Positions 3,132-39,473 of a stretch of DNA of 64,000 bases are shown in pieces. Positions within the stretch are counted from its first letter, which is position 1; every line of letters begins with the position of its first letter. This stretch comes from an uncultured Methanosarcinales archaeon (lineage in GTDB: Archaea > Nanobdellota > Nanobdellia > Woesearchaeales > DSVV01): assembly GCA_964469935.1 (NCBI GenBank), contig CAYXZQ010000002.1, forward strand, positions 319 through 64,318, in the 5' to 3' direction. The position numbers and the translations under genes are program-made. The notes beneath the pieces are model-generated. The model was not told the DNA's origin. It ran no database searches and worked only from the letters and a program-made list of their open reading frames with translations.

Positions 3132-3926
3132 TCAATCTGAGAGCAGCCTTCTCAGCTTCTTCAGGTTCTCCAGGTCCTCTGAAAGATTCAGAAAATCTGT
3201 CTTGGGAGTCTCGAGCGAAAGATAAGCACCCTCAGGTATCTGCCTGACAAGATCCCTCAGGGGCAGGTCTCCATCGCCCAGGTGCAGATGCTCGTCTACT
3301 TCTTTATCCTTACGGCTGTCGCTGAGATGGAACATATAAGGTCCTAAACCCAGAAAATCCCTGACAAAACCCATCATCTTCCTACCATGCGTATTCGATG
3401 CTGCAATCGCGTGGCCGATGTCAAGGCAGAATCTGCAGCCGGTCTTGTCCAGCACTTCCCTGTATTCTTCAGGCCTGGATATGACCAGAGGGATATTGTT
3501 CTCATAGCCGACCGCAGGCACGTTCTCAAGTATGATGTCAAGCTCAGGCATAAGCCCTTTTATGTTCATGACAAGGCTCTGGACTGTGTCCCTTTTTTTG
3601 TCCAGCACATAGCCGGGGTGGAAGATTATCTTATTTTTGCCGAAAAACTCGGTGAATCTTCTGATTGTCTTGATTGATTCATGATAAGTCATGTCCTTGT
3701 TCGTGATGCTGAAGCCGTGGTTGTAGTTCGGGGCGTGGAATATGACAGGAACATCCTTAAGGATCTCAAGCTTAACGCCGTCGAACGTGCCGGGCACGAT
3801 GTAGAGCTCGACATAATCTATCAGCCCATCACTTAAGAATTCGGCAAGCTTCGTAAAGGACTCCTGGTTGATTGACCATATCTTGAGCCCCAGCCTGACC
3901 CTTTTTTCCCCCATTTGCAGGCCCAT
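3132..3926 (-). CDS. Sugar phosphate isomerase/epimerase, xylose-isomerase-like TIM-barrel family.
   Basis: Length and motifs ('IIFHPGY', 'CLDIGHA', a His/Asp/Glu metal-ligand pattern) fit the AP-endonuclease-2 / xylose-isomerase-like TIM fold. The likely start is MGLQMGEK (alternative starts at 3950 or 3914). Confidence 0.55.
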   Translation of the reverse strand: MGLQMGEKRVRLGLKIWSINQESFTKLAEFLSDGLIDYVELYIVPGTFDGVKLEILKDVPVIFHAPNYNHGFSITNKDMTYHESIKTIRRFTEFFGKNKIIFHPGYVLDKKRDTVQSLVMNIKGLMPELDIILENVPAVGYENNIPLVISRPEEYREVLDKTGCRFCLDIGHAIAASNTHGRKMMGFVRDFLGLGPYMFHLSDSRKDKEVDEHLHLGDGDLPLRDLVRQIPEGAYLSLETPKTDFLNLSEDLENLKKLRRLLSD

Positions 3927-31191: not shown

Positions 31192-34100
31192 TTATTTAGC
31201 GTCGATGAGCTTGACTATCTCGTAGCCGTAGGCGGTCTGAAACGGCTTTGAAACGTCTCCTACCTGCAGGCTGAAGACCTGGTCCTCGAATGCCTTCGGC
31301 ATGACCCCCCTTCCGAACCATCCCAGGTTGCACCTGACTGTCTCGTCGCTGCATTCTGAATACTGCTGAGCCAGCTCATCGAAATTGTCAGGGGTTATCA
31401 TGCCGTATATCTTGTCTGCAAGGGCCGATGCCTGCTCATCCGTCCTGTTTGAAGTGCTTATGAGTATATGTTCCACCTTTGCAAGGGTCTTCTCCTGGAT
31501 AGGGTCCTGTGTCGTGTTGCCGGGGGAAACTGCCTGCGAAGTGTCCGTGGTTGCCTGCTCTGTCTGCGATGAGGCAGTGTCGACAGCTGGGGCCTGGCTG
31601 ACGCTTGCATTCCTTCCTGCCCAGTCGACCTTCCACGTGATAATCTTCGCTCCGGTGATGTCCCTTACATTGTTGAAGGAGTCGAAATGGGTGAGTCCCG
31701 CACCCTCGAAATAGAACAGCCTCGTGAACATGCTTCCCGCAAGGTCAGCGTCCATCAGGACCGACTGGTAGGTCCCGCCGGACTCCACGATGGCTGCACC
31801 TAGCGGCCTTCCGTCCTGGGACGTGATGTAGTTGCCTGCGTACTGCTTGACCCTGAACTGCCCGTACTTGTCAATGAATGATATTGCCCTGACATTGAGC
31901 GACGTCCCCTGTACTGACGCCTCTTCGGTCGAGAGGTCGAACTGGAGGCCGTTGCTGCACGAGACTGTGTTATCGCTCACCGTGCACGCTGTGAGATCTC
32001 CTGCATAGCTCGGCCACGGCGCGATCCACTGGTCCGGGTCCGTGGTCTTTATTTGGTTGTAGATGCTGAGGGCTGCAGTGCTGTTCAGGCCAAAATTGTC
32101 CTCAAGGTATGAGACTCCGTCTATCTGGTTCTTGTTGTACACCTTGTTGTACTGCTCGGCTCTCGTGAAATTCCATGCGCCGAAATGCGCCCATACCCCC
32201 GACTTGCCGACCATGTCTTCGCTGGTTATGAAATAGTCTTCGGGCGGGCTGCAGTGGGTGTACTGCAACACGTCCTCTGCCTGCGCGTCTGTAAGGCCTT
32301 TTGAGAGCAGGACGCTCTTTGCAGATGCCCTGTCGAGCACGATTATCTGGTATATCGTATCTATTGTCTTCAGTGAGTCGTTGTCCATGTACGGGAGCAG
32401 TGTGTCGAAGCCCGTGTTGGAGCCGCAGTCGAGGTATCTCAGTATCCCCACTGATTCAGTCTCGTTCCATGTGAGCATGAGCTTGCCCAGCCAGTGGGCT
32501 GCGGGGTTGTTCTGCCTCCCTCCGTCAAGGGTCACCCTCCTGTCTCCGATGGCTGCGAACCAATGGCCGAAGTCCCACCATGAATTGATGATGGCGTCAG
32601 GCTTGGACTGGTCCTTTATCTTGGTCAGCGAGGAATACCAGCTGTCGTCCATCGTTGGCACCTCGTTGAGGGCCGTGGTCTTTGCAGCCGATACAATGTT
32701 GATGGGAAAGAACATGAGCGCGCAGAAGATGGCGATGATTGCGCCGTAGGCGAATATCTTGTTCACCGTAAGCTCCTTTGATATCCATTCCGAGACCTCG
32801 GTGGTGACGATACCGGCTGTTATCCCGCAGGCGATAGAATATGCCGGGACCAGGAGAAGGATGAACCTGACTCCTTTTGAGCTTGCATATATCGTCGAGG
32901 CGAACCAGATGGCAAGTATCAATGAATATCTTATGTCCAGCTCTGTTCCCACGACCATTGTGTACAGGATGTATCCAGCGATAGGCAGAAATATTAGCAC
33001 TGCATAAAGCAGCTGGCTCTTGACCGCGCCCTGTATTATTATTATGAACAGGTACCAAACAGCGCTTATGGCGAGGAAATAGAGGCTGTCCTTCTTTTCG
33101 GATTTGAGATTGCCGAGAGGGAGCACAAGGCCTATGAGAGCGATGAAGTACCATATCTTGCTCCCGAGGCTGATCTGGCTGATCGTCGAGTTGAGCGTGG
33201 CAGGATTCAGCTCGGCCACTGTCGTGTACACGTTCGGCCATATCTTCTGGACTCCCACCTGCTTGAGCTGGGTGAATCCTATGGTGCCCTGGAAGAAGTT
33301 TATGAAATCCCCCCATGATTTGATGAGGGTCACGAACAACGCTGACAGGATGAAGAATGCGGCTGTTATGAGGAGCGCGTTCTTAAGCCTCTCGATCGAA
33401 AGCATTTTTTTCGGATTTTTGAAGATTGCCTTGCGGTTCATTATCCCGTGGTATGCTATGATGCCGAGGAGCATCACGATTACGAAATCAAAGATGAAGT
33501 ACCACGCGGTCCACGCGAAGCTGAACAGCCCCACGCAGAAGGCCGCAAGCCCTGCAAGTATGATGGTCTTTGTCCTGCTCCTGCTGTTGAGGGCCTCGAG
33601 AAGGAGCCATGTTATCATTAGAGGGAAGAAGACGTTGTAGGCGTCGGTGTCTGAGAACCCGCCTATGGTCCTTGAAAGCAATGCAGGGTGGATGGCTATC
33701 AGGACACCTGCGATGAACCCGCCGAAATCACCGGCTATCCTTCTCGTTATGAAAAATGCCGGGATGATTATCAGAGTCCCGAAGATGAGCGGCGTGAAGA
33801 ACACCACGTACATGAGGTCGACGTTGGGATTGAATAGTGCTGCAATCCTGTACATGACATATTGCACCAGGACATGGAAGTGCACGATTCTCTTGTCAGT
33901 GCCCTTGCCCATCGGCTGGCCTGCGAGGACCTTCGTGTCATGATAATACCCGTCAGGGCTCTGGTAGTCCCCTTCAAAGCCGTGGTCGATGACGTCCTCT
34001 GTCATCCTGTAATAATAGTACGGGTCTATGGCAAGAAGATACGTGTGGCCGTAATCATTCTGGAACCTCGACCTGAAATATTCCGAGTTCTGGCTTATGA

Positions 34101-34452
34101 CCTGGGAGATATCTACGTTCTGGCCCTGGATGTTGATCTGTCCTGTCTGGAGTATCTGGCTGAACTGGTCATTGACTATCTGGTTCTTGTTGGTGTCGGG
34201 GAGATTAGGATACTGTGTGGAGACCTGGCTCTTTATTGTCGACTTGATATTGTTGTAGATGGTGTTCTGGGCCCACTGGTCCGTTATCGGCAGGTAAACC
34301 GGCATGGCCCTCAGGTAAATGCTCAGGATGATGGGGATCAGGATCAGTATTACTGTTATGGATTTCTTCATCAGGGCCTTGTTTGAGAAAAACCCTTTCA
34401 GCTTCTTCAGATCAAGGCTCAGTTCCTCTTCCTTCTCCTTACCCTTGGACAA
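31192..34452 (-). CDS. aglB: STT3/AglB-family oligosaccharyltransferase fused to a C-terminal parvulin-type peptidyl-prolyl isomerase domain (1086 aa).
   Basis: EL1 motif 'AIDPYYYYR' and 'SWWDFGHW' (WWDYG variant). A Ser/Thr/Gln-rich linker follows. The C-terminus 'EHILIS...LGWFGRGVMPKAFEDQVFSLQVGDVSKPFQTAYGYEIVKL' aligns with PpiC/parvulin. Confidence 0.8.
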   Translation of the reverse strand: MSKGKEKEEELSLDLKKLKGFFSNKALMKKSITVILILIPIILSIYLRAMPVYLPITDQWAQNTIYNNIKSTIKSQVSTQYPNLPDTNKNQIVNDQFSQILQTGQINIQGQNVDISQVISQNSEYFRSRFQNDYGHTYLLAIDPYYYYRMTEDVIDHGFEGDYQSPDGYYHDTKVLAGQPMGKGTDKRIVHFHVLVQYVMYRIAALFNPNVDLMYVVFFTPLIFGTLIIIPAFFITRRIAGDFGGFIAGVLIAIHPALLSRTIGGFSDTDAYNVFFPLMITWLLLEALNSRSRTKTIILAGLAAFCVGLFSFAWTAWYFIFDFVIVMLLGIIAYHGIMNRKAIFKNPKKMLSIERLKNALLITAAFFILSALFVTLIKSWGDFINFFQGTIGFTQLKQVGVQKIWPNVYTTVAELNPATLNSTISQISLGSKIWYFIALIGLVLPLGNLKSEKKDSLYFLAISAVWYLFIIIIQGAVKSQLLYAVLIFLPIAGYILYTMVVGTELDIRYSLILAIWFASTIYASSKGVRFILLLVPAYSIACGITAGIVTTEVSEWISKELTVNKIFAYGAIIAIFCALMFFPINIVSAAKTTALNEVPTMDDSWYSSLTKIKDQSKPDAIINSWWDFGHWFAAIGDRRVTLDGGRQNNPAAHWLGKLMLTWNETESVGILRYLDCGSNTGFDTLLPYMDNDSLKTIDTIYQIIVLDRASAKSVLLSKGLTDAQAEDVLQYTHCSPPEDYFITSEDMVGKSGVWAHFGAWNFTRAEQYNKVYNKNQIDGVSYLEDNFGLNSTAALSIYNQIKTTDPDQWIAPWPSYAGDLTACTVSDNTVSCSNGLQFDLSTEEASVQGTSLNVRAISFIDKYGQFRVKQYAGNYITSQDGRPLGAAIVESGGTYQSVLMDADLAGSMFTRLFYFEGAGLTHFDSFNNVRDITGAKIITWKVDWAGRNASVSQAPAVDTASSQTEQATTDTSQAVSPGNTTQDPIQEKTLAKVEHILISTSNRTDEQASALADKIYGMITPDNFDELAQQYSECSDETVRCNLGWFGRGVMPKAFEDQVFSLQVGDVSKPFQTAYGYEIVKLIDAK

Positions 34453-34635
34453 ACTATCTTCCCCCGATTTCGGATTTTAAAAAATTACAGGTTGTATATA
34501 AAGATTATGATTGGAGGTGGCAGTAGGATTTTTATCACGGGCTTCGCCGCCGTTTCTTCTCTATGGATGATATGAGAAAGATTTAAATATGATTTCAAGT
34601 TTGCCTCAACCAGCAGTTATGGTAATGACAGTTTA

Positions 34636-36411
34636 TTGCTGACTGAAACGAGCAAAGGGGTGACCATCTTGGTGAAGCATAAGAAGAAGAAGCATTCTGC
34701 CGGTAGATCAGCCTCAGAGAACACTGAGGGGCATGCAAATGCAAAAGAACATGCAAATGTTCATCCGGACAAAAGCCCGCACACCCACAGTGTGCACAAA
34801 AAAGAGCCTAAAAAAGCTCCAAACCCTTGGATATGGGTCGCAGCCGCTGTAGTCCTGATTCTCGCTGTATATGCGATATACAACATTGGTTCCGGGGAGA
34901 TAAAAGAGGACAATACAGGCAACACCGTCGCAACAGGGGCAGTGAATTTTGACCTCTATGTCATGAGCCAGTGCCCCTATGGCACACAGGTTGAGGATTC
35001 ACTCGCACCAGTCCTCAAGACGCTCGGAAACAACGTCGATTTAAGCCTGAACTACATTGCAAATGACAACGGTGACGGTTCTTTCACCAGCCTCCACGGG
35101 AATAATGAAGTGCTGGGCGACATAGTCCAGCTCTGTGCGCAGAAATACAATCCGGACAAGTACATGGATATGATTATATGCCAGAACAAGGACGCGAGTT
35201 CCATTCCTGGGAACTGGGAATCCTGCGCAACGGACAACGGGCTTGACGTCGACAAGATCAAGTCCTGCTACAAGGGAGATGAAGGCAAGCAGCTGCTGAG
35301 TGCAAGCATCAAGGAATCAGAGGACATCGGTGCTACAGGCAGCCCCACTATCTACATCAATAACAACAGCTATTCCGGTGCGAGGGGGCAGAACGATTTC
35401 ATGAGGGCGATATGCAACGCATACACGGGTACGAAGCCCTCGGCATGCGATGACATACCTGCTCCTGCTGAGGTCGACGTCATTGTCATAAATGACAAGC
35501 GGTGTTCAGAATGCGAAACCGGCATGACACAGCTTCTCGCCCAGCTCAAGAGCGTGTTCCCCGGCCTTAAAGTGACATCCTACGACTACAGCCAGCCCGA
35601 GGCAAAGACCCTCATGGCGCAGACAAATGTCAAGCTTCTGCCGGCCGTGCTGTTTGACGACAGCGTCACGAAGGACGAGAATTACGCCAATGTCGAGCAG
35701 TACTTGGTGCCCGCAGGCGATTACACTTCGCTCAGGATAGGTGCTGATTTCGACCCGTCAGCAGAGATATGCGACAATGGCATCGATGACACAGGCAACG
35801 GCCTCATCGATTGCCTGGATCCTGAATGCAACGGGACCATTGTCTGCAGGCAGGAGATTAAAGACGACCTGCAACTCTTCATAATGAGCGACTGCCCGTA
35901 CGGCAAGCAGGCTGTAATCGCCTTGAAGGATGTGATCGGAAATTTCGGAAGCGCTCTGAAATACGACATCCATTACATAGCAAGCGAGACGTCAAGCGGC
36001 TTTTCGAGCCTGCACGGCACCTATGAGGCTGACGAGGATATTGTCCAACTCTGCACAAAGAAGCATTCGCCGGACGTGTGGTTCGACTATGTCTACTGCA
36101 GGAGCGAGGAAGGCATCAAGGGGAATGACTGGCACAACTGCGCAGAGCAGACAGGCGTTGACATAGACGCAGTCGAGGCATGTATCAACGGCACCGAAGG
36201 TCCCTCTCTGCTGAGTCAGGACATAAAGATAGCTCAGGGGCTCTCGATCAGCGCTTCGCCCACATGGCTTGCGAACAACAAGTACATATTCAGCGGAATA
36301 GCTGCAGAGGCAGTCAAGTCGAGCTTCTGCAAGTACAACCCTGACCTCACAGGCTGCAACAACACGCTGTCATCGGCTTCAGGGACAGTTGCTTCAGGCG
36401 CGTGTGGCTAG
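34636..36411 (+). CDS. Membrane-anchored extracytoplasmic protein with a tandem-duplicated Cys-rich domain. Possibly a thiol-oxidoreductase-like fold.
   Basis: A His/Lys-rich N-terminus is followed by one TM helix. Two ~240-aa repeats each carry 'MS[QD]CPYG[TK]Q', 'SLHG...IVQLC' and 'W..C....G.D.D....C' motifs. The linker 'CDNGIDDTGNGLIDCLDPEC' looks like a Ca-binding DxDxDG motif. Confidence 0.5.
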   Translation: MLTETSKGVTILVKHKKKKHSAGRSASENTEGHANAKEHANVHPDKSPHTHSVHKKEPKKAPNPWIWVAAAVVLILAVYAIYNIGSGEIKEDNTGNTVATGAVNFDLYVMSQCPYGTQVEDSLAPVLKTLGNNVDLSLNYIANDNGDGSFTSLHGNNEVLGDIVQLCAQKYNPDKYMDMIICQNKDASSIPGNWESCATDNGLDVDKIKSCYKGDEGKQLLSASIKESEDIGATGSPTIYINNNSYSGARGQNDFMRAICNAYTGTKPSACDDIPAPAEVDVIVINDKRCSECETGMTQLLAQLKSVFPGLKVTSYDYSQPEAKTLMAQTNVKLLPAVLFDDSVTKDENYANVEQYLVPAGDYTSLRIGADFDPSAEICDNGIDDTGNGLIDCLDPECNGTIVCRQEIKDDLQLFIMSDCPYGKQAVIALKDVIGNFGSALKYDIHYIASETSSGFSSLHGTYEADEDIVQLCTKKHSPDVWFDYVYCRSEEGIKGNDWHNCAEQTGVDIDAVEACINGTEGPSLLSQDIKIAQGLSISASPTWLANNKYIFSGIAAEAVKSSFCKYNPDLTGCNNTLSSASGTVASGACG

Positions 36412-36485: not shown

Positions 36486-37472
36486 TTATTCTCTCCAGCT
36501 GACCTCGACCTCGTCAGTCCTCTCGTAAGGCCTTATCGCCAGGTCTTTGTCTGATTTCCCTTTCATGCATTTGTGCTTCAGGAGTCCCAGCCATGCAATC
36601 ATCGCGCCATTGTCGACAAGGAACTCATTTTTTGGGACAAGGCATTTCGCACCCCTGTCTTTGCACATTAGCTTAGCCATCTCCTGGAGGCGGATGTTGC
36701 ATGCCACACCTCCGCCCAGGAGGAGCTCCTTTTTGCCCGTATGCGCCATGGCCCTCTCGGAAACCTCGATAAGCATGGCAAAGACGGTCTCCTGGGCAGA
36801 ATAAGCCAGGTCTTCCTTCCTGAACCTCCCTGAACTTATCTTCTGTTTGAGGTTTGTCAGAAGCCCGCCGAACGAGGTATCCATGCCCTTGACAACGTAC
36901 GGCAGCTCGACGTACCTTTTCCCTTTGAGCCCGAGCTCGTATATCTTCGGCCCGCCGGGAAACCCGAGGCCGAGCTCCCTGGCAAATGAGTCAAGGAAAT
37001 TGCCGATCCCGATGTCCAGGGTCTCGCCGAATATCCTGTACCTCCTCCCTTCATATGCGATGACCTGGGTGTTTGCCCCTGAGACATAGAGAAGGACCGG
37101 GTCTTTTGCAGGGAAAAGCATGTTGCCTATCTCAAGATGGGCGATGCAGTGGTTGACCCCTACTATGGGCTTTTTGTGTATCGCATGGATCGACCTTGCT
37201 GCCATGGCGCCAATGCGGAGGGCATGTCCAAGCCCGGGCCCCTGGGAGAAAGATACCAGGTCGATGTCTGAGATTTTCATTCCTGCATCGGAAAGCGCAT
37301 CCTTTATGACGATATTGAATACATCCACATGGTGCTCTGAAACCCTGTTCGGTATCATGCCGCCTTTCTTGGTGGTATAGCTGTCCGTGACATTGGCAAG
37401 GACTTTCCCTTCGTCATCCACGATGCCTGCACCGAATGTGTGGGCTGTGGACTCGATCCCGAGGCAAATCAT
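36486..37472 (-). CDS. kae1: tRNA N6-adenosine threonylcarbamoyltransferase, archaeal Kae1 type.
   Basis: 'MICLGIESTAHTFGAGIV' is the archaeal Kae1 N-terminus with two His. 'SFSQGPGLGHALRIGA' is present. The start is taken at MICLG. The 64-aa upstream extension is rejected. Confidence 0.8.
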   Translation of the reverse strand: MICLGIESTAHTFGAGIVDDEGKVLANVTDSYTTKKGGMIPNRVSEHHVDVFNIVIKDALSDAGMKISDIDLVSFSQGPGLGHALRIGAMAARSIHAIHKKPIVGVNHCIAHLEIGNMLFPAKDPVLLYVSGANTQVIAYEGRRYRIFGETLDIGIGNFLDSFARELGLGFPGGPKIYELGLKGKRYVELPYVVKGMDTSFGGLLTNLKQKISSGRFRKEDLAYSAQETVFAMLIEVSERAMAHTGKKELLLGGGVACNIRLQEMAKLMCKDRGAKCLVPKNEFLVDNGAMIAWLGLLKHKCMKGKSDKDLAIRPYERTDEVEVSWRE

Positions 37473-37556
37473 TGTCGACTGGAAAAAACCGGAATTAAAA
37501 ACATTTTCGATGCACCATCCACAACCTTTATTAACTGTACAAGGATTACTGGACTT

Positions 37557-39473
37557 ATGGCAGACCCCGAGCTTGAGAACCTCAAAAAACAGATACTCGA
37601 ATATAACCCGAAGGCCGACATTGCGCTTGTCGAGAAGGCGTACAAGTACGCGAAGATAGCCCACGAGGGCCAGGTGAGGGAGTCAGGCGAGCCTTATTTC
37701 AACCATCCCATCGGGATTGCTAGGATACTCATAGGGCTCAAGGTTCAGTCGACGACGATATGCGGCGCGCTTCTCCATGACGTCGTCGAGGAATCGAAGG
37801 TCAGCCTCAAGAAGGTGAAGGACGAATTCGGCCCCGAGATAGCCTCTCTCGTTGAGGGCGTCACGAAGATAGACAAGGTCCATTTCGAGAGCAAGCAGGA
37901 CTACACAGCAGAGAATCTCAGGAAGGTGCTGCTCGCGACTGCAAAGGACATAAGGATAATGCTCATAAAGCTTGCCGACAGGCTGCACAACATGCGGACC
38001 CTTAAATCCCTGAGGGAGGACAAGCAGAAGAGGATTGCAGAGGAGACCCTGAACATATATGCGCCCATAGCCCATAAGCTTGGCGTCTGGCACATAAAAG
38101 GAGAGCTTGAGGACCTCTCGCTCCGGTACCTTGACCCCGAGGCGTACCAGATGCTCAGGGACAGGATAAACGAGAAGCGCGAAGAGCGCGAAAAGAAGAC
38201 AAAGGAGTTCATAAGGACCATAAAGAAGAAGCTCAGGGCCCATGACATCGAGGCAGAGGTCAACGGCAGGGCCAAGTACTTCTACAGCATATACAAGAAG
38301 ATGAAGAAGAAGAACGTGGACTTCAGCGAGATATACGACCTGATTGCCATAAGGATAATAACAAAGAGCATCCCTGACTGCTATGCCGCCCTGGGCATAC
38401 TCCACGACACCTGGAAGCCCATTCCCAAGAAATTCAAGGACTACATAGCCACCCCCAAGGCGAACGGCTACCAGAGCCTGCACACAGCGCTTGTCGGGAG
38501 CCACGGCAAGATACTCGAGGTGCAGATAAGGACAGAGGAGATGCACCAGATCGCAGAGGATGGAATCGCGGCTCACTGGAGGTACAAGGGCACAGAGAGG
38601 GACAAGCAGTTCGACAGGAAGATATCATGGATAAAGCAGGTGCTCGACTGGAGGCAGTCGGCAAAGGATGCAGAGGATTTCATGGAGACCCTCAAGATTG
38701 ACCTCTTCGAGAAGGAGATAATAGTATTCACGCCCAAGGGCGACCCGATATCCCTGCCGGAGCACTCGACTCCCGTGGATTTCGCATATGAGATTCATAC
38801 GAACATCGGCAACCACTGCTCAAAGGCGCTGGTGAACGAGAAGCTGGTCACGCTTGACACAGAGCTCATGCCAGGCGATGTCATCGAGATAGTTACGATG
38901 AAGAATGCAAAGCCATCGAGGCAGTGGCTCAAGTTCGTCAAGACCAGCAAGGCCAAGGGCAAGATAAGGGCCATACTGAACATCGAGAAGGAGCATGACC
39001 CGAAGACCAGGAAGGAGGAGGAGCTCCCTGAAAATCGGGCGAAGATGATAGATATCATCGGCAAGGACGTGCCGATAAAGATATCCAAATGCTGCGATCC
39101 CAGGCCGTATGATTATATCGAGGGATTTTATACAAAAGACGGGAAGATAACTGTCCACAAGAAAGGCTGTCCCAATGTCCATTCCCTTGACCAGAACAAG
39201 AAGGCTGTCGTTCACTGGAAAAAGGAATCAGGGGACAGGTTCAAGGAATTCAAGATCATTGCTCAGGATAGGGTGGGGATGATAGCTGAAATACTCAACT
39301 TCCTCGTCGCCTTAAAGCTCAATGTGGAGAAGCTCAACACCAGCACGACAAAGCATGGCAGGTTCATGCTGAACCTGGGAGTCTCTTTGGATAAGGAAGA
39401 GACAGTTGCCGAACTCATAGCAAAGCTCAAGGAGATAAAGGGCGTCTTCGATGTCATGGAGTTCAAGGGCTAG
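37557..39473 (+). CDS. Full-length RelA/SpoT homolog with HD hydrolase, (p)ppGpp synthetase, TGS and ACT domains.
   Basis: HD domain: 'HEGQVRESGEPYFNHPIGIA...LLHDVVE'. Synthetase: 'FYSIYKKM...DLIAIRII...DCYAALGILHDTWKPIPKKFKDYIATPKANGYQSLHT...EVQIRTEEMH...AAHWRYK'. TGS: 'IIVFTPKGDPISLPEHSTPVDFAYEIHT'. There is a C-terminal ACT-like 'IIAQDRVGMIAEI'. Start MADPELENL. Confidence 0.8.
   Translation: MADPELENLKKQILEYNPKADIALVEKAYKYAKIAHEGQVRESGEPYFNHPIGIARILIGLKVQSTTICGALLHDVVEESKVSLKKVKDEFGPEIASLVEGVTKIDKVHFESKQDYTAENLRKVLLATAKDIRIMLIKLADRLHNMRTLKSLREDKQKRIAEETLNIYAPIAHKLGVWHIKGELEDLSLRYLDPEAYQMLRDRINEKREEREKKTKEFIRTIKKKLRAHDIEAEVNGRAKYFYSIYKKMKKKNVDFSEIYDLIAIRIITKSIPDCYAALGILHDTWKPIPKKFKDYIATPKANGYQSLHTALVGSHGKILEVQIRTEEMHQIAEDGIAAHWRYKGTERDKQFDRKISWIKQVLDWRQSAKDAEDFMETLKIDLFEKEIIVFTPKGDPISLPEHSTPVDFAYEIHTNIGNHCSKALVNEKLVTLDTELMPGDVIEIVTMKNAKPSRQWLKFVKTSKAKGKIRAILNIEKEHDPKTRKEEELPENRAKMIDIIGKDVPIKISKCCDPRPYDYIEGFYTKDGKITVHKKGCPNVHSLDQNKKAVVHWKKESGDRFKEFKIIAQDRVGMIAEILNFLVALKLNVEKLNTSTTKHGRFMLNLGVSLDKEETVAELIAKLKEIKGVFDVMEFKG

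Follow-up and report, generated by a model that had tools for sequence, protein, structure and literature searches.

What kind of protein lies beside the oligosaccharyltransferase (OST) gene of this archaeal contig, and how might it work with active-site-like motifs that hold a single cysteine each? The window, by which we mean the whole stretch of 64,000 nucleotides analyzed, carries an open reading frame (ORF) for a membrane-anchored protein with two cysteine-rich repeats, which an initial annotation made from the sequence alone took for possible GILT-like or related thiol-disulfide oxidoreductase modules acting on secreted glycoproteins. From homology, residue conservation and a predicted structure we consider it reasonably probable that the protein exchanges thiols and disulfides outside the cytoplasm, as an enzyme of GILT/DsbA fold whose active site is split, and a conserved C-terminal cysteine probably completes the one-cysteine CPYG sites.

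Architecture of the encoded protein

Counted from its first TTG, as in all residue numbers given here, the ORF encodes 591 aa; the database copy (P0001, 579 aa) begins at GTG 34672, which is the likely start codon and has an RBS-like GGGGTGA upstream of it at 34657-34663, with a TATA-like TTTAAATA near 34582-34590. The features are as follows.

34636..36411, + strand: whole ORF, 591 aa from TTG (ORF call; database copy P0001)
34636..34830, + strand: predicted cytoplasmic N-terminal tail, residues 1-65, disordered and Lys/His-rich (pLDDT <50 over residues 1-61; composition and variability across homologs)
34831..34887, + strand: single predicted transmembrane (TM) helix and signal-anchor, residues 66-84, IWVAAAVVLILAVYAIYNI (model helix 65-84; hydropathy 2.34; replaced by a lipoprotein signal peptide in some relatives)
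34933..35463, + strand: GILT-like (DsbA-fold) domain A, residues 100-276 (Pfam GILT 51.2 bits; GILT alignments; invariant columns)
34972-34983, + strand: domain A one-cysteine site, C113-P-Y-G
35338-35349, + strand: domain A cis-Pro loop, GSPT
35470..35733, + strand: thioredoxin/glutaredoxin-like domain, residues 279-366 (PDB profile matches 1A8L/1J08; weak TIGR02187 match; CxxC in 57/57 homologs)
35503-35514, + strand: CxxC of the central domain, C290-S-E-C293
35635-35646, + strand: cis-Pro of the central domain, LLPA
35764..35850, + strand: acidic four-cysteine module, residues 377-405, with C379, C393, C398 and C404 (NF033662 below cut-off; invariant residues)
35857..36360, + strand: GILT-like domain B, residues 408-575 (Pfam GILT 34.7 bits; internal repeat E 3e-34; invariant columns)
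35893-35904, + strand: domain B one-cysteine site, C420-P-Y-G
36253-36267, + strand: domain B cis-Pro loop, ASPTW
36361..36408, + strand: flexible C-terminal arm, residues 576-591, NTLSSASGTVASGACG (low terminal pLDDT; tail Cys in 347/403 relatives; covariation; TGA in L088, L089 and L092)
36403-36405, + strand: Cys590 codon, one residue from the C-terminus

The N-terminal tail is His-rich, as first described (8 His in 65 aa), includes HANAKEHANVHPDKSPHTHSVH at residues 33-54 (34732-34797), and lies on the cytoplasmic side of the TM helix; across relatives it ranges from 0 to 136 aa and is Lys-rich (22%) and often His-rich (10%), and many bacterial members have a lipoprotein signal peptide in its stead. 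The positive-inside tail followed by a TM helix, or the lipoprotein signal peptide of relatives, points to a type-II membrane-anchored, extracytoplasmic protein.

The tandem duplication proposed in the initial annotation is real and beyond chance, since BLASTP between the two halves returns 56/144 identities (39%, E 3e-34), but the repeated unit is ~170 aa and not ~240 aa, with copies at residues 100-276 and 408-578 whose starts are 307 aa apart. Every string that had been quoted is found in the translated ORF 34636..36411, and the paired motifs and cysteine positions hold up: MSQCPYGTQ (residues 110-118) pairs with MSDCPYGKQ (417-425), SLHGNNEVLGDIVQLC (152-167) with SLHGTYEADEDIVQLC (458-473), and WESCATDNGLD (194-204) with WHNCAEQTGVD (499-509). 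Six further cysteines lie in each repeat (167, 182, 197, 211, 260 and 271 in domain A; 473, 488, 502, 516, 565 and 574 in domain B). Two features had been overlooked, namely the CxxC thioredoxin-like domain between the repeats and the conserved C590, the 21st cysteine of the protein. In the AlphaFold model the domains reach a pLDDT of ~97, and a beta1-Cys-alpha1 geometry appears three times (residues 103-109/114-133, 280-286/291-307 and 411-416/421-440).

The acidic linker CDNGIDDTGNGLIDCLDPECNGTIVC (residues 379-404) contains a DxDxDG-like motif, and N381, D384, D385, D392 and all four cysteines of the module are invariant across 57 homologs; NCBIfam NF033662 matches it at 31.2 bits, under the cut-off of 41. 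The module is probably a Ca-binding, disulfide-stapled connector.

Homology to GILT

Pfam GILT (PF03227) matches the whole protein with 81.1 bits (E 9e-23) over profile positions 2-106 of 107, and each repeat alone exceeds the gathering score of 22.4 (51.2 bits for domain A, 34.7 for domain B). A search of the PDB with the family profile recovers mouse GILT (6NWX, E 4.5e-8). The Pfam scores and the 6NWX match thus speak against a fold unrelated to thioredoxin, the outcome that the initial annotation had named as fatal to its GILT-like reading. When aligned over the whole domain to a canonical GILT repeat (CPSC, CQHGEKEC; E 7e-16), CPYG falls on CPSC and six of six structural cysteines align, and both repeats show the GILT three-dimensional fold with its conserved structural cysteines. 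At the N-terminus of helix alpha-1, however, where GILT has CxxC, both have C-P-[YF]-G; of the GILT signature CQHGx2ECx2Nx4C they keep H-G-x2-E-x3-[ND]-x4-C, the first two cysteines being replaced by Ser and Val/Leu, and H154, G155, E158 and C167 are invariant within this region. The repeats likewise have a DsbA-type thioredoxin fold with helical insertion and cis-Pro loop, again with CP[YF]G in place of CxxC, and the Pfam DSBA match is confined to the C-terminal part. The central domain is matched in the PDB by the N-unit of the Pyrococcus PDO (1A8L/1J08, E ~1e-5) and weakly by NCBIfam TIGR02187.

Family distribution and conservation

Among 57 full-length homologs (45-82% identity), none varies in the 20 ectodomain cysteines, P114, H154, G155, E158 or the cis-Pro loops; the central CxxC occurs in 57/57, the tail cysteine in 54/57. 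The CPYG motif was rightly called an atypical one-cysteine site, and it is conserved: C-P-[YF]-G occurs in 55/57 copies of domain A and 56/57 of domain B, the remaining one being CPHG, and over 765 domains the fourth residue of the motif is Gly in 85%, Ala in 10% and Cys in 2.7%.

GILT was described in 2008 as being without known prokaryotic homologs (PMC2398784); the family to which the window protein belongs is large, with relatives in at least 576 species-representative genomes, hosted by DPANN archaea and many Myxococcota. The four-domain architecture is near-identical in both groups (44-50% identity), which we read as inter-domain gene transfer of a surface enzyme, and in some Myxococcota the same ectodomain is fused to a cytoplasmic Ser/Thr kinase or to RCC1 repeats. 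No family member appears to have been characterized so far.

The C-terminal arm

The tail cysteine is found in 347/403 relatives, 14-23 aa (median 16) beyond the last structural cysteine, and single-domain CPYG proteins carry it too. It is missing from 11 of 13 proteins that have a full CxxC in either GILT-like domain vs 42 of 365 others (Fisher 1e-8, uncorrected for phylogeny), a covariation that is inflated by one large CxxG-plus-tail clade and accompanied by tail loss that is common anyway across the divergent part of the tree. The CxxC that goes with tail loss belongs to domain A in some lineages, to domain B in others. The window protein has one arm for two CPYG sites, and AlphaFold leaves the arm undocked (pLDDT <50, residues 586-591). 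A MYXO-CTERM or archaeal C-terminal sorting signal was considered as the reason for the tail cysteine and rejected because no hydrophobic segment follows it.

In-frame TGA at the tail codon of bacterial relatives

In three bacterial lineages (P0206, P0174 from MAG GCA_964488445.1, and P0309, at loci L088, L089 and L092; the window protein is not among them) the tail-cysteine codon is an in-frame TGA followed by the canonical last one or two residues and a stop: ...SGGG-TGA-GG-TAG in L088, ...SGGG-TGA-K-TGA in L089 and ...PGGG-TGA-G-TGA in L092, where the nearest homologs read ...GGCG[KGN] or ...GGGSCG. Published constraints on the bSECIS element are an apical loop of 3-9 nt with G in its first two positions, a stem of at least 4 bp, a distance of 16-37 nt from UGA and an energy of at most -7.5 kcal/mol (PMC13188914). 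In L088 (-13.4 kcal/mol, spacing 23) and L089 (-10.7 kcal/mol, spacing 17) the TGA is followed by hairpins that conform to these, and L092 has a 5-bp hairpin (loop GGUC, spacing 17) at which the contig stops. Taken one by one, the hairpins are unremarkable (z -0.8 to -1.7), 7 of 84 Cys-form control genes also have a conforming one, and an Rfam SECIS search of four TGA loci returned noise and no match. Because TGY to TGA is the sole single-step nonsense change at a Cys codon, these cases could be truncations. Decoding of TGA as Gly or Trp in an alternative code is unlikely, since neighboring genes use TGA as a stop normally and the contigs are GC-rich. The arm appears to carry a candidate selenocysteine (Sec) in some bacterial relatives.

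Two further loci were left out of the count. L090 (P0281) has a TGA within a Gly run and then an in-frame GGACGKGGACGNK-stop, which is ambiguous between Sec, an error and a recent mutation. In L091 (P0182) the TGA follows ...PPPKP with no canonical tail beyond it, and we regard it as an ordinary stop. At the CPYG cysteine itself, a search of metagenome contigs for [FY][VI]MS[QD]-TGA-P[YF]G gave 4 matches, all of them random and 0 in the family. The family is missing from the 2026 selenoprotein catalogue consulted here and, if the Sec reading is true, would be a new selenoprotein family, a suggestion that we make tentatively and as part of the wider reading given below.

Proposed mechanism and alternatives

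In each GILT-like domain helix alpha-1 still begins with the nucleophilic first cysteine (C113, C420) and the cis-Pro loop is retained, and both have Gly where GILT and DsbA have the second cysteine. If eight structural disulfides take up the remaining 12 cysteines of the GILT-like domains and the 4 of the connector (the predicted pairs being 167-182, 197-211, 260-271, 473-488, 502-516, 565-574 and two within 379-404), the redox-active set would consist of C113, C420, C590 and the CxxC pair. An arm of 16 residues could span some 50 A at most. One could then envision a CPYG thiolate attacking a substrate disulfide to give a mixed disulfide, which the mobile C590 would resolve, ending up bonded to C113 or C420; a substrate thiol could serve as resolver instead, resulting in disulfide shuffling. 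Recycling of the enzyme may fall to the central CxxC domain or to an external thiol. C-to-S mutants of GILT begin reduction and cannot complete it (PMC6060088), and the DsbA-like FrnE regenerates its active-site cysteine with the help of a C-terminal tail cysteine that bonds to it (PMC8945050). Action as a reductase or isomerase on surface or secreted proteins seems to us more likely than de novo oxidation, and the proposed split arrangement of a one-cysteine site and an arm cysteine is so far undescribed for the GILT enzyme family.

The wider reading, which seems to us plausible though short of probable, is that of a prokaryotic GILT branch in which the lone C-P-[YF]-G cysteine is completed in trans by a swinging G-x-Cys-G arm, with Sec in some Myxococcota-type bacteria; the four-domain protein would have been exchanged between DPANN archaea and Myxococcota, and eukaryotic GILT may derive from this prokaryotic family.

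Alternatively, the protein could be a dedicated disulfide-forming oxidase equivalent to DsbA, donating a C113/C420-C590 or CxxC disulfide that some oxidant re-forms to newly exported proteins. DsbA proteins are indeed the next-best structural matches, the membrane-anchored extracytoplasmic placement resembles that of Gram-positive DsbA, BdbD and MdbA, and an oxidizing pathway must exist in the organism if, as predicted, about eight structural disulfides have to form in this very protein. However, GILT, the closest homolog, is a reductase, and one-cysteine motifs and Sec variants, here putative, are as far as we know unusual for dedicated oxidases. Myxococcota, which host many members, probably have oxidative-folding systems of their own. 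No DsbB, VKOR or CcdA partner gene was seen in the window or among the conserved neighbors of 83 related loci, nor did a screen of the 53 window ORFs by ORF, TM and Cys content yield a multi-TM cysteine protein of these kinds. We regard an oxidase as unlikely.

Somewhat more doubtful is a non-catalytic ectodomain whose GILT-like modules bind ligands or capture partners, possibly through a mixed disulfide, in adhesion, sensing or retention. ERp44 is a precedent for partner capture and retention, DPANN archaea attach to other cells, and the kinase and RCC1 fusions of some Myxococcota are receptor-like in architecture. Furthermore, mosGILT, a natural CxxS GILT, has no reductase activity and acts through binding (PMC6060088), and the TRX domain of plant VSR1, which is among the PDB matches, is a GILT-like fold in a receptor (PMC11052993). 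Such a role would leave unaccounted for the near-invariance of the nucleophilic cysteine, cis-Pro loops, central CxxC and tail cysteine; moreover, the tail covaries with CxxC, and a TGA/Sec at the tail position suggests redox catalysis.

We are inclined to set aside a third reading, in which the cysteines handle a metal, metalloid or oxidized small molecule, as in copper tolerance (ScsC), sulfenic-acid repair (DsbG) or peroxide/polysulfide chemistry. Fold comparison places ScsC (suppressor of copper sensitivity) and DsbG-type proteins near the top, H154 and E158 beside the HG hinge never vary, and a related NCBIfam entry, the "DsbG-like" NF041057, is a known selenoprotein family. His-rich tails of archaeal members could be cited in its favor too, but they are cytoplasmic, variable and missing in bacterial members. 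No conserved metal-transport or resistance genes lie near the loci examined, and the multi-domain, PDI-like layout with its CxxC module fits protein substrates better.

The neighborhood of the gene bears on the last alternative. As first noted, an OST gene (AglB/STT3) adjoins the ORF. The two are divergently transcribed across a 183-bp gap, the OST gene encodes an AglB-parvulin fusion, and the window is a glycosylation island. The arrangement recurs in two relatives, 80% and 64% identical, and the loci that show the adjacency besides the window are L001/L005 (one genome) and L007. It is absent at P0053, P0116, P0120 and the other loci among the 83 examined, so that a conserved OST association of the Ost3/Ost6 type is not seen, and the bacterial loci examined show no nearby STT3. 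Clustering of the ORFs of the 83 loci revealed no widely shared neighbor; the two shared best, MetRS (downstream, 9 loci) and a BrkB/YihY membrane protein (upstream, 8 Myxococcota loci), are not redox proteins. Because co-conservation extends to Kae1 and RelA/SpoT in these same few genomes, we consider the OST adjacency ordinary, lineage-specific synteny and reject a functional tie, which makes it very improbable that the protein holds cysteine-containing glycoprotein substrates for AglB in the manner of Ost3/Ost6. The proposed action on secreted glycoproteins, whose sole ground was this adjacency in the window and two related genomes, falls with it.

Comparison with known systems

The genomes of DPANN archaea are small, and the organisms, often anaerobic, live attached to other cells. 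To our knowledge, how the disulfides of their surface proteins are made, shuffled or broken has not been established, and a literature search on DPANN or Woesearchaeota disulfide biology found nothing relevant; the protein described here is a concrete, testable candidate for such chemistry. A second catalytic residue on a C-terminal arm, occurring naturally as Cys or as Sec, would if true be a new active-site design for thioredoxin-fold enzymes and add one more selenoprotein family to the bacterial list.

With GILT the protein shares homology over the whole domain, including six non-active-site cysteines and the H-G-x2-E...C core. In contrast to the soluble lysosomal enzyme, a disulfide reductase that works at acidic pH, it is a prokaryotic, predicted membrane-anchored surface protein in which tandem copies flank a CxxC thioredoxin domain, CP[YF]G stands for CxxC, Ser and Val/Leu stand for the first two signature cysteines, and a C-terminal arm with Cys (or putative Sec) is present. 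The DsbA family (S. aureus DsbA 3BCI, B. subtilis BdbD, ScsC) has the same thioredoxin fold with inserted helical domain and cis-Pro loop and, in Gram-positive bacteria, the same extracytoplasmic membrane or lipid anchoring; the similarity in sequence is weaker than to GILT, and here the DsbA-fold domains lack CxxC and no DsbB/VKOR gene was seen in the window or among the conserved neighbors of the 83 loci.

Several thioredoxin-fold modules in one chain are also found in PDI and in the archaeal PDO (Pyrococcus 1A8L), to whose N-unit the middle domain is related in sequence, and one-cysteine CxxS sites in PDI support isomerization. However, the outer domains here are of GILT/DsbA type and not classical thioredoxin a-domains, and PDO is cytoplasmic with two CxxC sites. 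Mammalian thioredoxin reductase offers a functional analogy at most: its flexible C-terminal Gly-Cys-Sec-Gly arm carries redox equivalents and resembles the G-x-[C/U]-G arm with its Cys and apparent Sec forms among homologs, but the enzyme is a flavoprotein of unrelated fold and its arm has an adjacent Cys-Sec pair. mosGILT and the VSR1 TRX domain are likewise GILT-fold modules without a canonical CxxC, reported or suspected to be non-catalytic binders, whereas the present family keeps an invariant nucleophile, a tail Cys or putative Sec and an additional CxxC domain. The closest parallel to the arm itself is Deinococcus FrnE, whose structures are among the fold matches and in which a cysteine of a flexible tail forms a disulfide with the active-site cysteine of a DsbA fold (PMC8945050); FrnE is cytoplasmic, with a full CxxC and two tail cysteines (CxxxxC), whereas here the single tail cysteine appears to stand in for the missing second cysteine of the active site.

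Domain architecture and relation to GILT

The open reading frame at 34636..36411 (+) encodes 591 aa when read from its first TTG, the version by which residues are numbered here; the public copy (P0001) is 100% identical, begins at GTG 34672 and is 579 aa long. This GTG is preceded, across an 8-nt gap, by a ribosome-binding-site-like GGGGTGA, and a TATA-like TTTAAATA lies ~85 nt upstream. The initial annotation, made from sequence alone, had raised the possibility that a tandem cysteine-rich module here resembles a thiol-disulfide oxidoreductase or GILT, the mammalian lysosomal disulfide reductase. The strings it quoted are all present at the positions it gave, and the internal duplication is much too strong to be accidental (56/144 identities, E 3e-34), but the repeat unit spans ~170 aa (residues 100-276 and 408-578) rather than the ~240 aa it had supposed, and both a CxxC domain and the near-terminal C590 were overlooked. 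The layout was concordant between an AlphaFold model (57 input sequences; mean pLDDT 86.9, ~97 in the folded domains) and profile searches of Pfam, NCBIfam and the PDB.

Domain layout of the product of 34636..36411 (+), by residue
1-65: disordered Lys/His-rich N-terminal tail (N-tail)
66-84: single transmembrane helix
100-276: GILT-like domain A; beta1 (103-109) leads to C113-P-Y-G at the start of helix 114-133
235-238: cis-Pro loop of domain A, G-S-P-T
279-366: small thioredoxin/glutaredoxin-like domain; C290-S-E-C293 opens helix 291-307, cis-Pro at L-L-P-A
377-405: acidic module with four cysteines, CDNGIDDTGNGLIDCLDPECNGTIVC; NCBIfam 'acidic double-disulfide repeat' match, below cut-off
408-575: GILT-like domain B; C420-P-Y-G, A-S-P-T-W
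576-591: C-terminal tail NTLSSASGTVASGACG, low-confidence in AlphaFold, ending in C590-G

Each repeat alone exceeds the Pfam GILT gathering score of 22.4 (51.2 and 34.7 bits) and covers almost the entire model. The best solved structure for the two-repeat profile is mouse GILT (6NWX, E 4.5e-8), the next being that of the plant vacuolar sorting receptor 1 TRX domain, and 6NWX was also the top Foldseek match of the AlphaFold model (E 3e-8, TM 0.78; 189/189 residues aligned). P0245, a canonical eukaryote-type GILT (CPSC, CQHGEKEC) that surfaced in the library search, aligns end-to-end by one repeat with domain A (E 7e-16), pairing CPSC with CPYG and CQHGEKECYGNMVEDC with SLHGNNEVLGDIVQLC, while the six remaining cysteines all coincide. 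From these scores, structural matches and alignment we conclude that the predicted likeness is one of true homology to GILT, with replacements at the second active-site cysteine and at the first two cysteines of the signature. For the middle domain, a family profile picks up Pyrococcus protein disulfide oxidoreductase through its N-terminal unit (1A8L/1J08, E ~1e-5).

Active-site and tail cysteines

Among 57 full-length homologs, all 20 ectodomain cysteines through C574 are invariant, as is the middle CxxC (57/57); the motif C-P-[YF]-G occupies domain A in 55/57 and domain B in 56/57, the remaining one being CPHG. A further cysteine lies 0-3 residues before the C-terminus in 54/57, so that the usual total is 21, an odd number. 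Judging by cysteine positions and homology with GILT, the 12 non-active-site cysteines of the GILT-like domains, together with four from the acidic module, would form eight local disulfides, leaving C113, C420, C590 and the CxxC pair as the putative redox-active set.

A cysteine 14-23 residues (median 16) past the last structural cysteine was found in 347/403 relatives; in 269 of them it lies right at the C-terminus, and in 78 it belongs to a P-x-G-S-C-G-G-G motif that precedes a Lys/Ala/Pro-rich extension. The low-complexity extension of this subfamily (78/403; P0313-P0346 and others) runs 25-70 aa. In the single-domain CPYG members P0195, P0221, P0231, P0225 and P0219, the arm directly follows the lone domain. 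With active-site tetrapeptides extracted by HMM (three cases misassigned by regular expression were hand-corrected), the tail cysteine was absent in 11/13 proteins with a full CxxC in either GILT-like domain and in 42/365 without one (Fisher 1e-8, kinship ignored). A neighbour-joining tree shows ~10 changes of the CxxC state and ~19 of the tail; P0095 and P0101, the only CxxC pair inside a large CxxG-plus-tail clade, have both lost the tail.

A cysteine/selenocysteine (Sec) pair is an established sign of a catalytic redox residue. Three bacterial lineages have a protein that seemingly ends just before the expected tail cysteine, with TGA at exactly that codon; the usual final residues and then a genuine stop follow in frame. 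The nearest relatives end ...GGCG[KGN] or ...GGGSCG.

In-frame TGA at the tail codon
L088 (P0206), 3643-3645: SGGG-TGA-GG-TAG
L089 (P0174), 2137-2139: SGGG-TGA-K-TGA
L092 (P0309), 3496-3498: PGGG-TGA-G-TGA

In L088 and L089 the hairpin after the TGA meets published bacterial SECIS constraints (PMC13188914); L092 has a similar hairpin, cut by the contig end, with loop GGUC and a 17-nt spacing as in L089. A SECIS-type hairpin follows the Cys codon in only 7/84 Cys-form genes (4/35 of the GC-rich ones). The hairpins are individually weak, and an Rfam search of the TGA loci gave no match. Caution is thus called for, the more so because TGA is the sole one-step nonsense change from TGY, but the TGA homologs are probably real selenoproteins. 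A pattern scan of metagenome contigs found no variant with Sec at the CPYG cysteine. In P0281 (L090 3106-3150) a TGA within a poly-Gly run is followed in frame by GGACGKGGACGNK and a stop, duplicating the canonical tail; Sec, a recent mutation and a sequencing error are all conceivable.

Distribution and gene context

The protein database holds >1000 relatives, the best 120 of which are all full-length (45-80% identity), mostly from Woesearchaeota/Nanobdellota, and labelled, if named, 'DsbA family', 'GILT family', 'glutaredoxin' or 'hypothetical'. A one-genome-per-species scan found at least 576 genomes in two groups, one of DPANN archaea (Woesearchaeota, Nanoarchaeia, Nanohalarchaeota, Altiarchaeota) and one of bacteria with 44-50% identity across the whole four-domain protein (many Myxococcota/'Deltaproteobacteria', also Oligoflexales, Spirochaetales, Patescibacteria and Gammaproteobacteria); this distribution implies that the gene has passed between archaea and bacteria. 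An exhaustive search with domain A returned 3032 cluster representatives at E<=1e-3 and 264 at E<=1e-30, mostly tandem, sometimes single-domain and rarely with three or four copies. The N-tail varies from 0 to 136 aa (overall 22% Lys, 10% His); it gives way to a lipoprotein signal peptide in many of the bacterial members, which confirms the predicted location of the cysteine-rich part outside the cell. Archaeal cytoplasmic N-tails are repeatedly His-rich (up to 19 His) and Lys-rich, and the bacterial lipoprotein forms are without such a tail.

Across 83 loci we found no conserved partner gene and saw no DsbB-, VKOR- or CcdA-like gene near the family gene; the commonest neighbours were MetRS, in 9 loci, and, in 8 Myxococcota loci, a BrkB/YihY membrane protein. 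The MetRS gene lies downstream in L031, L033, L041, L056, L060, L068, L071 and L076, and upstream on the opposite strand in L074, in archaea (Altiarchaeota and others) as well as bacteria (Gammaproteobacteria, Patescibacteria); the adjacency may reflect co-transfer or be fortuitous.

Discussion

The conservation of the tail, the arms of single-domain members, the covariation of tail with CxxC and the TGA at the tail codon support a role for the tail cysteine as part of the catalytic machinery. The N-terminal helix would keep the exported protein at the membrane, and each GILT-like domain would attack disulfides through a thiolate placed where helix alpha-1 starts, beside the cis-Pro loop, which is the standard geometry for such attack. 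Because CP[YF]G has no second cysteine, the mixed disulfide would need a resolver outside the motif, a part that probably falls to the mobile C-terminal cysteine, by analogy with the G-C-U-G arm of mammalian thioredoxin reductase. Mutants of GILT lacking the second cysteine begin reduction and never complete it (PMC6060088), and in FrnE, a cytoplasmic DsbA-like protein, a cysteine on the tail pairs with the active-site cysteine in a disulfide and helps to regenerate it (PMC8945050). The central CxxC domain may hand on redox equivalents; alternatively, a substrate thiol could resolve the intermediate, resulting in disulfide shuffling. The main weakness of the tail-partner reading is that one arm would serve two CPYG sites, and AlphaFold does not dock the arm.

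The protein more likely reduces or isomerises surface and secreted proteins than oxidises them de novo, since the closest homolog is a reductase, the sites have one cysteine, putative Sec variants occur and no DsbB/VKOR neighbour was seen; on the same grounds a dedicated DsbA-type oxidase is unlikely. Somewhat less probable again is a non-catalytic ectodomain for binding, sensing or adhesion, comparable to mosGILT, the plant VSR TRX domain or ERp44. It draws support from Myxococcota-type fusions of the same tandem ectodomain to an N-terminal Ser/Thr kinase or RCC1 repeats (P0276, P0310, P0311, P0359 and P0182, the last at L091 1501-4173; P0185 and P0256), architectures that look receptor-like. 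Slightly lower still we rate thiol chemistry on metals or small molecules, of the ScsC or DsbG type.

An oligosaccharyltransferase (OST)-coupled, Ost3/6-like role is very improbable: the minus-strand neighbour at 31192..34452 is indeed STT3/AglB, as had been noted, but among the loci examined this neighbour is limited to the window and two related genomes (80% and 64% identity), and the adjacency is ordinary synteny, given that Kae1 and RelA/SpoT are kept in those genomes and one more. This AglB carries a C-terminal PpiC/parvulin peptidyl-prolyl isomerase (rotamase) domain (residues 987-1085), fusing OST to a folding catalyst, as does that of the related genome L001 (1091 aa). The window also encodes, at 37440-39473 (+), a full-length RelA/SpoT homolog (HD_4, RelA_SpoT, TGS and ACT) in an otherwise archaeal, Woesearchaeota-like genome; it adjoins Kae1 in L001, L007 and L011 as well. 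By ORF size, TM count and related-locus annotation, the upstream half of the window, 1-31187, looks like a glycan-biosynthesis island, with two NeuB-like ORFs, a 12-TM flippase-like ORF, glycosyltransferases, a GtrA-like ORF and a 627-aa 9-TM protein beside AglB.

Certain database entries bear the automatic name 'GILT family protein' already, so bare homology to GILT is not new. A 2008 survey described GILT as without known prokaryotic homologs (PMC2398784). NCBIfam has no model for the family, and a literature search on disulfide handling in DPANN archaea returned nothing relevant. A GILT-type family is absent from a 2026 catalogue of prokaryotic selenoproteins; P0206, P0174 and P0309 are candidates for a new bacterial selenoprotein family with penultimate or near-terminal Sec. 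GILT and DsbA-fold oxidoreductases are homologous to the present protein, which probably works in a like way. One defining feature of GILT, the CxxC, is missing here, and so is half of another, the signature cysteines. Three features of the present protein, not reported together before, go beyond these enzymes: its tandem repeats flank a CxxC thioredoxin domain, their CP[YF]G sites have one cysteine each, and a Cys/Sec arm forms the C-terminus.
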